Below are positions 1 through 3,375 of a stretch of 3,375 bases of DNA, one piece after another (within the stretch, counting starts at the first letter, position 1; each line of letters begins with the position of its first letter). The DNA comes from Escherichia coli. Its GTDB lineage: Bacteria > Pseudomonadota > Gammaproteobacteria > Enterobacterales > Enterobacteriaceae. The position numbers and the translations under genes are program-made. Below the pieces are notes generated by a model, which saw only the letters and a program-made list of their open reading frames with translations, did no database searches and was not told where the DNA came from. The stretch is from assembly GCF_024298765.1 (NCBI RefSeq), contig NZ_CP101216.1; one strand, given 5' to 3'.

Positions 1-210
1 TGACGCGCCCCGTGATCGATGGCCTTGGCTCCGTCCGGCATATCGAGAGCGGCAAACTACCCGTCCCTTCACTGGGAGGGGTGAGTTGTTGCCGTTCCCT
101 CCAACCTTTCACCATCCGGCATATCGCACGATCCCATGTGCACCGCAACTCCTGATAACTCCAGTGCAAAAAAAAAAAAAACGGATCTGCATCACAACGA
201 GAGTGATCCC
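1..210 (+). other. ColE1/pMB1-type replication origin, distal part (3' region of the RNA II primer and presumed RNA-to-DNA switch); RNA II promoter and RNA I lie outside the window
   Basis: Position matches the pMB1/pBR322 layout (ori, then bom, then rop). Window 211-226 ACCGCTCGCCGCAGCC and 259-272 GGAAGCGGAAGAG closely match the pBR322 segment between ori and bom as I recall it. The A14 run at 168-181 followed by CGG sits where pMB1 has its A5-CGCC switch motif. Positions 1-160 are too diverged to align by eye, so the boundaries are approximate. Confidence 0.45.
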
Positions 211-394
211 ACCGCTCGCCGCAGCCCCAGCGACCGAACGTAGTGAGCGAGTGGGCGAGGAAGCGGAAGAGTCACAGATGCAAGCATTGTGCACTTACGC
301 GCCTGTGCCAGTGTCCGCGTGTGTGCTGTTTATCGGGTGCGCTGTTTTTACATCTGTGCGGCTTTTTACTCCTGACATGGTGCACTTCCCATCC

Positions 395-560
395 ATGTCT
401 GCACCGATGCAAAATGAGATAAGCCAGTATACACATCGCTATCGCTCTGTGAACTGGGTCAGGGCTGCGCCCCGACACCCGCACTGACGCGCCCTGGCGG
501 GCTTGTCTGCTCCCGGCATCCGCTCACAGGCAAGCTGTGAACGTCTCCGGGAGCTGCATG
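395..560 (-). other. oriT / bom (basis of mobility) of the ColE1 family, with predicted nic site between 424 and 423 on the minus strand
   Basis: Reverse complement of 417-435 reads TGTGTATACTGGCTTATCT, matching the conserved ColE1/pBR322 nic region GTGTATACTGGCTTAAC. The flanks are near-identical to pBR322 bom as recalled: revcomp of 458-478 GGGTGTCGGGGCGCAGCC, of 500-526 GCGGATGCCGGGAGCAGACAAGCCCG, and of 543-561 ACATGCAGCTCCCGGAGAC. The nick position CTGG/CTTA is from memory of the ColE1 literature. Confidence 0.8.
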
Positions 561-802: not shown

Positions 803-1141
803 ATGAAACGCGAGAAGATGCTCACGATACGGGTTACCGATGAGGAGCACGCCCGGTTACTGGAACGCTGCGAGGGTAAACGACTGGCGGAATGGATGCG
901 GCGGGTCTGTCTGGGGGAGCCGGTTGCACGCACAGGAAAACTGCCGACACTATCGCCGCCATTGCTGCGGCATCTGGCTGCCATCGGGAACAACCTGAAC
1001 CAGACAGCCCGGAAGGTGAACAGCGGCCAGTGGTCTTCGATTGACCGGGTTCATGTGGTGGCCGCACTGATGGCCATCGAGGGTGAATTGCGCCAGTTGC
1101 GGCAGGCTGTCAGGGAACAGGGGGTACGGGATGATAGTTAA
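803..1141 (+). CDS. mbeC: MbeC/MobC relaxosome accessory protein (ribbon-helix-helix nicking accessory protein)
   Basis: Sequence MKREKMLTIRVTDEEHARLLERCEGKRLAEWMRRV... matches the ColE1 MbeC family; the same start (ATGAAACGAGAGAGGATGCTCACGATACGGGTTAC) survives as a remnant upstream of rop in pBR322. Start is ambiguous: 803 has the best SD spacing (AGGGGGAA at 786-793); 818 (MLTIRV..., 107 aa) and 794 are in-frame alternatives. The TAA stop at 1139-1141 overlaps the mbeA ATG at 1131. Confidence 0.9.
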   Translation: MKREKMLTIRVTDEEHARLLERCEGKRLAEWMRRVCLGEPVARTGKLPTLSPPLLRHLAAIGNNLNQTARKVNSGQWSSIDRVHVVAALMAIEGELRQLRQAVREQGVRDDS

Positions 1142-2705
1142 ATTTCATGCCAGGGGGAAAGGCGGTGGAAGTGGCCCGGTCGATTACCTGCTGGGGCGGG
1201 AGCGTAACCGCGAAGGCGCAACGGTGCTCCGGGGTAACCCGGAAGAAGTGCGGGAACTCATTGATTCCACGCCATTCTCGAAGAAATACACTTCAGGCGT
1301 TCTGTCGTTCGCGGAGAAGGAGTTACCGCCGGGTGAACGCGAAAGAGTGATGACGAGCTTTGAGCGTGTTCTTATGCCCGGTCTCGAAAAAGACCAGTAC
1401 AGCATTCTCTGGGTGGAACACCAGGATAAGGGGCGGCTCGAACTGAATTTTGTCATCCCGAACATGGAGCTACAGAGCGGTAAGCGCCTCCAGCCGTACT
1501 ACGACCGCGCGGACAGGCCGAGGATAAATGCCTGGCAGACGCTGGTTAATCATCATTACGGGCTGCGTGACCCGAACGCACCGGAGAACAGACGGACGCT
1601 TGTCACGCCAAATAATCTGCCAAAAGCGAAACAGGAGGCCGCAGAAGCGATTACACGGGGTCTTGAGGCGCTTTACCATGCCGGAGCAATAAAAACGCGT
1701 CAGGATGTCACTGGGGCGCTCACAGCGGCAGGTTTTGAGGTGGTGAGGACAACCAGAAGCAGTATCAGTATTGCCGACCCGGAGGGTGGGCGGAATCTCA
1801 GGCTAAAGGGGGCGCTGTATGAGCAATCTTTTACAAATGGGAACAGACTTCGAGAAGAAACTGAAAGAGCGAGCCGCTTCTACCGAGAACATGCTGAACA
1901 GCGAGTTCAGGAAGCTCGAAGAGTCTGTAGACAAGGCACTGAGCTTAAACAGGCAGAAAATCAGAGACGCTATCAGCGGACATACAACATCCGTGAAACA
2001 GCAACTGGATACACTGAGCGCCACCGTGAGCACGCAGTTCAGCACCACAGAGGCCGAACTGTCCCGGCAGCAGAAAAAACTGCTCTGGCAGGTGATCAAA
2101 GGGCGGATACTGTTTCCGGCGCTGACCGCGCTCAGCGTCACGGGCGGCATTTTCCTGGGGTGCTGGGGGCTGATGGAGTGGCAGGAAAGCAAGATTGCGA
2201 AAAATATCCTGACTATCAGAGAGCAGGAAAACACGCTGGCGAAACTCGAGGCAAAAACCTGGGGGGTGACGTTCGTCAATGGCGAGAACGGGAAATTTCT
2301 GGTGTTGCCGGACGGGGTGAAAGGGGAAAACACCTGGACGGTGGGCGACAAGAACGCCGTGAGGCTGGTCAGGGAGTAAACGAGTATGACGGAACTGGAA
2401 GGGCATTTGCTGAACGCCTTAGAGCATTTGCAACAGGACTATATGCGGCGGCTGAACGAGTGGGAGAGCGCCTTCGCGGAATTGCAGAAGATGCACGAGG
2501 TTACGCAACGGAACAACGCGATACTGAACGAGCGCGTCGTGATATTGAGTCAGCAGGTGCAGAGATTAGCCGGGCAAGTGGATCGCTTGAGTCGGTTATT
2601 TATCGCGAACAACAGCTAAGGGATGAACAGGAGCGTGCCCGGTACAGACATGAGGTACAGGAACGCGCGGCACGGGTTCGGAGTGGGCCATCAATGGAGA
2701 TGTGA
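1131..2705 (+). CDS. mbeA: MbeA/MobA relaxase, MOB-P5 (HEN) family, 524 aa
   Basis: N-terminus MIVKFHARGKGGGSGPVDYLLG places the catalytic Tyr at residue 19 as in ColE1 MbeA. WVEHQDKGRLELNFVIPN carries the H-E-N signature. The C-terminal half is R/E/G/A-rich low complexity, as in MbeA. I chose the 1131 ATG over the ORF-track start at 1083 because of homology and overlap coupling with the mbeC stop. Confidence 0.95.
   Translation: MIVKFHARGKGGGSGPVDYLLGRERNREGATVLRGNPEEVRELIDSTPFSKKYTSGVLSFAEKELPPGERERVMTSFERVLMPGLEKDQYSILWVEHQDKGRLELNFVIPNMELQSGKRLQPYYDRADRPRINAWQTLVNHHYGLRDPNAPENRRTLVTPNNLPKAKQEAAEAITRGLEALYHAGAIKTRQDVTGALTAAGFEVVRTTRSSISIADPEGGRNLRLKGALYEQSFTNGNRLREETERASRFYREHAEQRVQEARRVCRQGTELKQAENQRRYQRTYNIRETATGYTERHREHAVQHHRGRTVPAAEKTALAGDQRADTVSGADRAQRHGRHFPGVLGADGVAGKQDCEKYPDYQRAGKHAGETRGKNLGGDVRQWREREISGVAGRGERGKHLDGGRQERREAGQGVNEYDGTGRAFAERLRAFATGLYAAAERVGERLRGIAEDARGYATEQRDTERARRDIESAGAEISRASGSLESVIYREQQLRDEQERARYRHEVQERAARVRSGPSMEM
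1819..2379 (+). CDS. mbeB: MbeB/MobB mobilization protein, 186 aa, one predicted transmembrane segment (ILFPALTALSVTGGIFLGCWGLM)
   Basis: Lies entirely inside mbeA in the +1 frame, the hallmark ColE1 arrangement. Strong SD (AAGGGGG at 1806-1812) 6 nt before the ATG. Sequence has the MbeB-family character of a coiled N-terminal region followed by a TM helix. Confidence 0.85.
   Translation: MSNLLQMGTDFEKKLKERAASTENMLNSEFRKLEESVDKALSLNRQKIRDAISGHTTSVKQQLDTLSATVSTQFSTTEAELSRQQKKLLWQVIKGRILFPALTALSVTGGIFLGCWGLMEWQESKIAKNILTIREQENTLAKLEAKTWGVTFVNGENGKFLVLPDGVKGENTWTVGDKNAVRLVRE
2386..2619 (+). CDS. mbeD: MbeD/MobD-like protein, 77 aa, predicted coiled coil
   Basis: Same +1 frame as mbeB, starting 7 nt after the mbeB stop with an AGGGAG SD at 2370-2375; nested inside mbeA as in ColE1. 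Assignment rests on position and size; I cannot verify the sequence residue by residue from memory. Confidence 0.75.
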   Translation: MTELEGHLLNALEHLQQDYMRRLNEWESAFAELQKMHEVTQRNNAILNERVVILSQQVQRLAGQVDRLSRLFIANNS

Positions 2706-2805
2706 CCGGGGAAGTGACGAAATCTTGCCATTTTGACCAGTTCGACGGCTGGGGCGAGCGAAACAAATCGTGTGCCGTATTTGTGCATAGCTATGCAACA
2801 TCCTG

Positions 2806-2826
2806 AAAACGCATTTCACGCGTTTT
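2806..2826. terminator. Short hairpin (7-bp stem AAAACGC/GCGTTTT, 7-nt loop) about 100 nt downstream of the mbeA stop; weak candidate terminator in either direction
   Basis: Seen directly in sequence. The U-tract is mostly inside the stem, so termination efficiency is uncertain. Confidence 0.3.
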
Positions 2827-2833
2827 TGGGGAT

Positions 2834-3375
2834 TCAGCCAGGGGAAAACATGGTTTTTTTACTTTTTGAGCGTAAAGACGTGAAAAATCTCGTTATTGCA
2901 CTTGCGATCTTTCGTCGGCGGGCGTAGAACGAAAACAGCTCGCCAGGAAGGCGAGCTGTTTCGGGTTCATTGAGGTCTCTGACCTCCTCAATGTTCCTGT
3001 GGAAACTGTTGAGATCCACAACAGAAACCAGTTCATTCAGTTTGCATGAGCCTTCTGTATTCTTCAAGAATTTTTCAACAGCACAGTCTCCCAGGAACCC
3101 CGAAAAAAACCTGTTTTTGCAGATACTTGCGTATTTGCGAGAATCGTTTGCGGTTGGGGGAGCTGTGACGACGGCGACCGCACGCGTGAGAGTTCCGCTA
3201 CCGGCGCAGAGAGTTTCATCGACAGCGGACACCTGATGAGTTGCCACAAAAACCGTATGTAGCGCGGCTAGATTGGTTGAGTTAGACCTTGGCGGCAGTT
3301 CCCGGTATGTGGTGGCGTGACGGGTGAGATGGTGCGGCGAAGACGCATACGTCACGCAGGCGCGGGTTCTTCCAC
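2834..3375 (-). CDS. Hypothetical protein, 5'-truncated by the window edge (frame stays open past 3375); no recognisable domain
   Basis: A stop-free minus-strand frame of at least 180 codons, ending at a TGA (revcomp of 2834-2836) and convergent on the mob operon. Against it: no ATG anywhere in the frame (the listed start at 3353-3355 is GTG with no SD), and the strong hairpin at 2933-2961 lies inside it. Composition of the central part (KYASICKNRFFSGFLGDCAVEKFLKNTEGSCKLNELVSVVDLNSFHRNIEEVRDL) looks protein-like. Confidence 0.3.
   Translation of the reverse strand, partial: GRTRACVTYASSPHHLTRHATTYRELPPRSNSTNLAALHTVFVATHQVSAVDETLCAGSGTLTRAVAVVTAPPTANDSRKYASICKNRFFSGFLGDCAVEKFLKNTEGSCKLNELVSVVDLNSFHRNIEEVRDLNEPETARLPGELFSFYARRRKIASAITRFFTSLRSKSKKTMFSPG
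2850..2927 (+). CDS. Candidate small peptide, 25 aa (MVFLLFERKDVKNLVIALAIFRRRA), hydrophobic with a basic C-terminus; function unknown
   Basis: ATG at 2850 preceded by AGGGGA (2840-2845); TAG stop at 2925-2927, followed 5 nt later by a perfect GC-rich hairpin. No homology recognised. It overlaps the 3' end of the convergent minus-strand ORF, so at most one of the two readings is likely to be real. Confidence 0.2.
   Translation: MVFLLFERKDVKNLVIALAIFRRRA
2933..2961. terminator. Perfect 12-bp stem-loop (AAACAGCTCGCC, loop AGGAA, GGCGAGCTGTTT); candidate rho-independent, possibly bidirectional, terminator
   Basis: Seen directly in sequence. On the minus strand the stem is followed by TTTTCGTTCT; on the plus strand by TCGGGTTCATT. 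Confidence 0.45.

Follow-up and report, generated by a model that had tools for sequence, protein, structure and literature searches.

Organization of the plasmid

The window analysed here, a stretch of 3375 bp from Escherichia coli, represents an entire circular plasmid and belongs to the pSL476_3 type. Its only protein genes are rop, mbeC, mbeA, mbeB and mbeD (Table 1), and it encodes neither a coupling protein nor a type IV secretion system. The mob operon, mbeC-mbeA with mbeB and mbeD inside mbeA, lies on the plus strand and diverges from rop, which sits between the oriT and the mob operon in the position and on the strand that it has in ColE1. The separation of oriT from its relaxase operon by rop, pointed out in the preliminary description, reproduces the order found in ColE1; it is the normal arrangement and no peculiarity.

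Table 1. Features of the 3375-bp plasmid (positions in the window; strand left empty where none applies)
Feature	Position	Strand	Evidence
ssiA-like segment, contains GAGGAAGCGGAAGAG at 257-271	205-272		ColE1 homology
Nick-region motif GTGTATACTGGCTTA	420-434	-	Unique match, 0/200 shuffles
Conserved 61-bp putative oriT core	420-480	-	Distant blastn and multiple alignments
Nick-proximal inverted repeat CCAGT (457-453) / ACTGG (428-424), inner CACA/TGTG	424-457	-	ssDNA fold
Hairpin GTCGGGGC-GCA-GCCCTGAC, read on the nicked strand	458-476	-	ssDNA folds
46-nt compound hairpin GCTCCCGG...CCGGGAGC	509-554		Inverted repeats and fold
rop, 63 aa	563-754	-	Pfam Rop, 127 bits
mbeC, MobC-family ribbon-helix-helix nicking accessory protein, 107 aa	818-1141	+	Pfam MobC, NikA-like
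mbeA, MOB-HEN (MOBP) relaxase, 524 aa, intact	1131-2705	+	NCBIfam relax_MbeA_E1
mbeB, nested in mbeA, other reading frame	1819-2379	+	Pfam MbeB_N, 77.6 bits
mbeD, nested in mbeA, other reading frame	2386-2619	+	NCBIfam plas_excl_MbeD, 123.4 bits; Pfam MbeD_MobD

MbeC, for which an upstream ATG at 803 offers an alternative start, is 88% identical to ColE1 MbeC, and its counterpart in NC_011082 is annotated as a member of the MobC family; in the same record mbeB is annotated as MbeB family. MbeA matched the model NF047848 (relax_MbeA_E1) over residues 1-511 with 724.9 bits, for a cut-off of 500. It is 61% identical to ColE1 MbeA overall, its N-terminal half being highly conserved and its C-terminal half divergent, and it retains Tyr19 of motif I as well as His97, Glu104 and Asn106 of motif III. 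This HEN variant of motif III defines the relaxase subfamily to which MbeA belongs (PMC12857230). The relaxase had been described as intact, and the 524-aa reading frame with Tyr19 and the HEN residues bears this out. In the RefSeq records of two near-identical plasmids, mbeA is nevertheless flagged as a pseudogene "missing C-terminus". We set these flags aside, since none of the four copies examined has an interruption in the reading frame, and plasmid records that differ in length do so in an A-run at 168-181. We regard them as annotation artefacts, for which the nested mbeB and mbeD are a plausible cause.

The plasmid is widespread. By megablast, 137 PLSDB records cover at least 80% of its 3375 bp. 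The top-listed full-coverage matches measure 3372-3499 bp and are 99.5-99.9% identical; each aligns in two pieces, which identifies them as circular permutations of the same plasmid. Among the near-identical matches is pSL476_3 of Salmonella Heidelberg SL476 (NC_011082), typed by MOB-suite as "mobilizable; relaxase MOBP". A literature search for pSL476_3 returned no paper naming the plasmid. The hosts of the near-identical plasmids include Salmonella, E. coli, Klebsiella and Enterobacter, and such a presence in several genera is expected if the plasmid moves between hosts.

Replication region

The part of the plasmid that lacks ColE1 homology comprises 2706-3375 plus 1-205. A sensitive blastn comparison of window 2651-3375 plus 1-420 with ColE1 560-1480 returned only 211-308 and 351-410, both downstream of ori, and no similarity to ColE1 RNAII, RNAI or ori upstream of window position 205. 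Rfam scans gave chance-level matches only and none to the RNAI model (RF00106), whether the whole window was searched at E<=0.1 or 2700-3375 at E<=10, while ColE1, used as a control, scores 73.8 bits. MOB-suite assigned no replicon type. The classic ColE1 layout announced in the preliminary description therefore holds for oriT, rop on the minus strand and the divergent mbeCABD genes, but not for a ColE1 ori recognizable by blastn or Rfam.

This replication region occurs in 182 PLSDB records, including 3.1-kb MOBQ plasmids and pF200-6, and no ORF is conserved across these relatives. A 173-aa ORF on the minus strand (2834-3355) was discarded as a candidate for a Rep protein: searches against Pfam and NCBIfam gave no match, it shows no similarity to the helix-turn-helix protein of the Col(MG828) plasmids, and its reading frame is lost in pF200-6. 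On the minus strand, from about 3045 to 2922, analysis of the fold (z = -4.87) revealed three stem-loops and, at the end, a strong terminator-like hairpin (2934-2960) with a U-run behind it. This RNAI-like fold is kept in five relatives, with just two compensatory pairs. A conserved TTGCGA-17-TAGAAC element at 2902-2930, a candidate primer promoter, faces the opposite way, and the A-run at 168-181 lies about 600 nt downstream. The region looks like a ColE1-style replicon, RNA-primed and antisense-controlled, that would have diverged beyond sequence recognition; we infer this from the RNAI-like features together with rop. The type of replicon leaves the verdict on oriT unaffected.

The nick-region motif

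The motif GTGTATACTGGCTTA is present as a single copy on the minus strand. No further copy was found elsewhere in the plasmid when up to two mismatches were allowed, and none appeared in 200 dinucleotide-preserving shuffles. The preliminary description was thus right to recognize a conserved ColE1 nic motif on this strand, although its coordinates (421-435) were off by one. Across 15 diverse plasmids, 14 of the 15 motif positions are invariant, and the remaining one, 421, is A in 14 of the 15. The unique 15-mer includes the octamer CTGGCTTA (minus strand, 427 to 420), identical in the oriT of ColE1, where it contains the cleavage (nic) site of the relaxase (PMC5703827). Full-text literature searches retrieved unrelated primer sequences only for CTGGCTTAA, and no match on pBR322 bom. 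Following the ColE1 literature, we take the nicked bond to be the one between CTGG and CTTA, which places it between 424 and 423, directly 3′ of the second stem arm. On the ColE1 model, this 424/423 bond of the minus strand is the most likely site of cleavage by MbeA.

A 61-bp core conserved on one side of the predicted nick

A distant blastn search with 395-560 matched 4,432 plasmid records, 4,095 of which are typed mobilizable. With megablast, 853 of 5,426 complete E. coli genomes gave a match to the same interval, and 1,172 of the 1,175 matching places are on plasmids. The alignments of distant relatives start at query positions 26-28 (window 420-422), at the first bases of TAAGCCAG, and end at 483-507, so that homology among distant plasmids stops at 420, beside the octamer. 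An alignment of 15 plasmids from Escherichia, Salmonella, Klebsiella, Enterobacter, Citrobacter, Erwinia and Aeromonas showed the same pattern: 420-480 is almost invariant, divergence is immediate to the left of 420, and a spacer of variable length follows after 480. In the 1146-bp plasmid pF200-6, only 420-480 is retained from the interval 395-560. With the octamer at 427 to 420 and the alignments ending there, conservation is confined to the 5′ side of the nick. Conservation 5′ of the nick on the nicked strand is the usual pattern, reflecting the relaxase recognition and termination sequences, and 420-480 is presumed to be the region recognized by the relaxase and MbeC.

Judged from these alignments, the family-wide conserved oriT core is limited to 420-480, with 481-560 made up of a variable spacer and a rop-linked hairpin. 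Of the interval 395-560 previously put forward as oriT, the first of these two parts stands and the second does not belong to it.

Comparison with ColE1 and other relatives

The 15-mer recurs in ColE1 (NC_001371) at 1462-1476, some 135 bp past the stop codon of rop. Alignment of window 395-560 with ColE1 1437-1610 gave 147 identities over 163 aligned bases, with 16 mismatches and 11 gap columns. The expected alignment around the ColE1 motif was therefore obtained, and the homology of the flanks to bom is real, but "near-identical" overstates a value of about 90%, calculated against ColE1 and not pBR322. Eight of the 11 gap columns correspond to one deletion of CTAAAACC-type spacer, which leaves the spacer of the window 8 bp shorter at 481/482. 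Over 415-480, 59 positions are identical, five are mismatched and two are gap columns.

In ColE1, the motif is followed by rop (1612-1803, minus strand), a MobC-family gene (1867-2190, plus strand), then MbeB and MbeD. The two plasmids share the order and orientation of the ssiA-like segment, oriT, the opposing rop, mbeC and mbeA with nested mbeB and mbeD, and they share the inverted repeats of oriT. The ssiA-like segment is where homology to ColE1 starts (aligned from about ColE1 1307; by local blastn, window 211-308 corresponds to ColE1 1308-1403), and it is conserved in all plasmids that share this replicon; by homology, it is a putative ssiA, a site described for ColE1-type plasmids. Compared with ColE1, the window has five changes beside the nick in its core, roughly 65 extra bp on the leading side (273-339), and the divergent C-terminal half of MbeA. 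It lacks colicin and exclusion genes, and its replication region has no detectable similarity to RNAII, RNAI or ori.

A closer relative of the mobilization region is pSN11/00Kan (NC_014003), a ColE-type kanamycin-resistance plasmid from Salmonella Newport. Its MobA is 93% identical to the MbeA of the window, its MbeB and MbeD have equal lengths, and the DNA between 482 and the start of mbeC, rop included, shows about 98% identity. Its oriT is of the same type (87.7% over 163 nt), and the oriT-rop-mob arrangement is the same. Unlike the window, it combines the consensus version of the oriT core with a replicon typed as ColRNAI and carries an aph(3')-Ia cassette. pSN11/00Kan was mobilized by IncP tra functions at 0.78 and was not mobilized by F (<1e-7), while a related plasmid with an oriT but without mob genes was not mobilized by IncP (PMC9282650). 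Together, these results support a mechanism in which oriT acts in cis with the cognate mob proteins. Since F did not move pSN11/00Kan, mobilizability depends on the helper, and the list of IncF, IncI and IncP helpers given in the preliminary description should not be assumed to apply as a whole to a plasmid judged by this analogy.

ColE1-type oriTs also occur as orphans. Col(MG828) plasmids such as pHUSEC2011-3 (1549 bp), and pF200-6, share the 61-bp core, and pF200-6 in addition shares the core variant and the replication region of the window. Having no relaxase gene, pHUSEC2011-3 and pF200-6 would need the enzyme in trans, whereas the present plasmid has a full cognate mob operon.

Motif, homology, pattern of conservation, gene layout and intact proteins with their catalytic residues are all direct observations. 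In all likelihood, as judged from sequence comparison, 420-480 is the functional core of a ColE1-type oriT (bom) on a 3375-bp mobilizable cryptic plasmid.

Predicted structures of the nicked strand

Folding of the minus strand as single-stranded DNA yielded three structures, in the 5′ to 3′ direction: the 554-509 hairpin, the 476-458 hairpin and the 457-424 stem. The last of these contains a tandem hexamer, ATCGCT repeated twice as a direct repeat (plus strand, 435-446), and the nick is predicted immediately 3′ of its second arm (428-424). Across the 15 plasmids, one of its five outer pairs is broken in one sequence and the other four never vary; of its four inner pairs, three are invariant. 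Invariant pairs are neutral and neither support nor oppose the structure. For the 458-476 hairpin, 98.3% of cells are paired over the same alignment. At its outermost pair, seven plasmids have G-C and seven others T-A, a switch that probably corresponds to a single evolutionary event separating two clades and gives the hairpin weak support. Taken together, the two nick-proximal structures have 93.7% of cells paired, versus 18-39% with slid partners. The whole interval 395-560 folds better than all 200 shuffles (z = -3.36), and the fold of the 81-nt core alone is unremarkable (z = -1.72).

The hairpin adjacent to rop

The compound hairpin at 509-554 is delimited by the perfect 8-nt repeat GCTCCCGG / CCGGGAGC (509-516 / 547-554). 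Nested within it is a second repeat (521-543), in which TCACAG (524-529) and CTGTGA (535-540) extend to 9-nt arms at 521-529 and 535-543 that are 89% complementary. The inverted repeat noted earlier at 524-540 is thus genuine, but it belongs to this larger structure and lies outside the core oriT. The hairpin starts 8 nt past the rop stop codon on the minus strand. It differs from ColE1 by one mismatch in 46 and is identical in pSN11/00Kan; both of these plasmids have a rop gene closely related to that of the window. From about 513 onward, similarity is lost in two plasmids that have another rop allele, and it is lost further upstream in the relatives displaying mobC beside the core. From its distribution, the hairpin appears to be a separate rop-linked element, outside the conserved oriT core.

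For this element only, we tentatively favour, at slightly less than even odds, a function as a single-strand initiation signal, an ssiB-type primosome assembly site on the nicked strand that would not be part of oriT, over a function at the end of the rop transcript. Such a site would serve leading-strand priming or complementary-strand synthesis in the recipient. The hairpin is the strongest predicted single-stranded structure in 395-560 and, conserved in ColE1 and pSN11/00Kan, it is missing from other plasmids with the oriT core, among them pF200-6 and the relatives in which mobC adjoins the core. We tentatively equate it with ssiB; the L-strand factor Y site of pBR322 covers the homologous hairpin. 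Against this assignment, the presence of the hairpin tracks this rop allele, with which a rop-linked role fits equally well. ColE1-type plasmids are reported to possess ssiA directly downstream of ori and, at a greater distance in the same direction, a second primosome assembly site, ssiB (PMC3167613).

The same element could instead terminate the rop transcript or, as a stem-loop at its 3′ end, stabilize it, which we regard as rather unlikely. Its start so close beyond the rop stop, on the rop strand, fits this role, as does its occurrence in relatives with this rop allele and the divergence from about 513 in the two plasmids with another allele. However, no T-run follows it on the minus strand, and a terminator scan listed it on neither strand.

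A variant core and a possible mosaic origin

Comparison of the core with pSN11/00Kan, ColE1 and most relatives revealed AT for TC at 435-436, CT for AC at 447-448, and one extra base near 453. At the changed positions, 13 of 15 relatives carry the consensus bases. All five changes map to the stretch that separates the nick from the 458-476 hairpin, no more than about 30 nt 5′ of the former, and they count against a functional oriT because this is where recognition is expected. The same substitutions are found in pF200-6, which has no mob genes and shares the replication region of the plasmid, so that the variant seems to travel with the left-hand (replicon) side. This distribution fits a mosaic junction in or near oriT. 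We think that the variant is tolerated rather than disabling, because it is fixed in about 90 near-identical records and the proximal stem gains a base pair.

There is an outside chance that the five changes define a distinct oriT specificity variant, which would travel with the unclassified replication module and not with the relaxase. As homology ends at the nick octamer, it could have arisen by relaxase-mediated recombination at nic. If this were true, the histories of oriT and relaxase would differ, and the plasmid would be a natural hybrid.

It is quite improbable that the oriT is instead decayed or shifted in specificity, the changes 5′ of the nick weakening or altering recognition by MbeA or MbeC and leaving poor transfer, or transfer only with a variant partner. 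Consensus bases at these positions in such diverse relatives would agree with a loss of this kind, and so would the relaxase, which is 93% identical to that of pSN11/00Kan, whose core is the consensus: the DNA has changed, and the N-terminal relaxase domain shows no change to match. Yet the variant is fixed at at least 99% identity in the roughly 90 records, from several genera, and is found again in pF200-6 on an unrelated backbone, with all mob ORFs of the present plasmid intact. Moreover, kp5152_p5 also varies at these positions, which indicates that change there is tolerated, and the nick-proximal stem is not broken by the changes but becomes one pair longer (CACA/TGTG).

Least probable of all, and very unlikely in our estimate, is that conservation at about 426-453 reflects a sigma-70 promoter on the minus strand firing towards the replication region and not relaxase recognition: TTCACA-16-TATACT is the sole promoter-like site in the scan (10/12 consensus matches), and its first hexamer, GTCACG in ColE1, is created by the plasmid-specific extra base, but one site was found against 1.2 expected by chance, the improved -35 hexamer is particular to this plasmid while the conservation is family-wide, and a promoter would leave the end of homology at the nick octamer unexplained. 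We judged this site over the nick to be at chance level.

Proposed mechanism of mobilization

The preferred reading of 420-480, as the core of a ColE1-type oriT, suggests the following course, modelled on ColE1. MbeC would bind double-stranded oriT DNA and assist MbeA in melting the minus strand and cutting it inside CTGGCTTA, with 424/423 as the most likely bond. Tyr19 of MbeA would become covalently joined to the 5′ end, with the HEN residues H97/E104/N106 holding a metal ion. The segment 424-480, with its two inverted repeats and the tandem hexamer, would constitute the recognition and termination element. Because the plasmid has no coupling protein or type IV secretion system, the MbeA-DNA complex would have to use those of a conjugative plasmid present in the same cell. 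Transfer of the nicked strand would run 5′ to 3′, towards decreasing coordinates, and the recipient would thereby receive the ssiA-like segment and the replication region first, rop and the mob genes last. It is from ColE1 and its relatives that we infer the nicking, the strand and the exact bond cut, the direction of transfer and the helpers likely to work.

Significance

The element is an ordinary ColE1-type oriT of a common 3.4-kb cryptic plasmid of E. coli and Salmonella, of a kind already known, and its exact sequence is already deposited, though unannotated, in about 90 plasmids. As the ColE1 oriT is a textbook element, it carries little weight as a discovery. ColE1-type oriTs are nonetheless present in about 16% of complete E. 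coli genomes, and the practical value of the present identification is in annotation: the oriT is unannotated in the RefSeq records, and an intact mbeA is flagged as a pseudogene in some of them. For these reasons, common 3.4-kb plasmids could be scored as non-transferable though they are probably mobilizable.

Replication region of the plasmid

The replication region (positions 2706-3375 and 1-205) showed no nucleotide similarity to the ColE1 origin, and an Rfam search revealed no RNAI match in it while the ColE1 control was positive. MOB-suite assigned no replicon type to the plasmid. All three negative results contrast with the presence of rop. The region is found in only 182 PLSDB records, including MOBQ plasmids of 3.1 kb and one plasmid of 1146 bp, and the plasmids sharing it have no conserved open reading frame there. 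On the minus strand, from 3045 to 2922, the predicted fold comprises three stem-loops followed by a terminator (z = -4.87), and a conserved promoter-like pair of hexamers is present on the plus strand (see table). The region looks like a strongly diverged replicon of the RNAI/RNAII type. Plasmids with the same replication region also keep, slightly altered, a palindrome lying shortly past the end of the relaxase gene mbeA, which is a possible regulator site or accessory site for multimer resolution.

Sequence features of the plasmid
Feature	Position	Strand	Remark
Perfect 14-bp palindrome TGCATAGCTATGCA	2784-2797		
Conserved TTGCGA-17-TAGAAC	2902-2930	plus	
Terminator hairpin of the 3045 to 2922 fold	2934-2960	minus	followed by a U-run; predicted fold
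Terminator-like hairpin, then TGTTTTT	321-342	plus	in segment 273-339
Sigma-70-like site TTCACA-16-TATACT	426-453	minus	promoter scan, 10/12 matches

Between the replication region and oriT

Positions 168-181 form an uninterrupted run of 14 A that precedes the ssiA-like segment by about 25 nt. This run varies from 11 to 14 A across otherwise near-identical records, which explains their different lengths (3372-3375 bp). It is possibly an RNA-to-DNA switch region, or else just a homopolymer in which slippage occurs easily during sequencing or replication. The stretch from the ssiA-like sequence to oriT includes a segment of about 65 bp (273-339) that neither ColE1 nor the 1146-bp plasmid pF200-6 has; the MOBQ plasmid pSH12_6 has part of it in common with our plasmid.

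Annotation of mbeA

In the near-identical plasmids NZ_CP060993.1 and NZ_CP123259.1, mbeA carries a pseudogene label in RefSeq ("incomplete; missing C-terminus"), and the PLSDB gene table lacks a relaxase entry even for ColE1. The 524-amino-acid open reading frame (1131-2705) is intact in all copies checked, and the pseudogene call is probably an annotation artefact tied to mbeB and mbeD, which lie nested within mbeA.

Variant oriT core

Compared with the consensus of 13 of the 15 relatives aligned, the oriT core differs at positions 435-436 and 447-448 and carries an extra base near 453. This base, specific to our plasmid, creates the good -35 hexamer of a sigma-70-like site that overlaps the nick motif and is directed towards the replication region; it was the sole promoter-like site found in the scan, for a chance expectation of 1.2. 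Both substitutions, without the extra base, are shared with pF200-6, which has no relaxase, while pSN11/00Kan, whose relaxase is 93% identical to that of our plasmid, has the consensus core. This distribution in the compared sequences suggests a mosaic junction near oriT.
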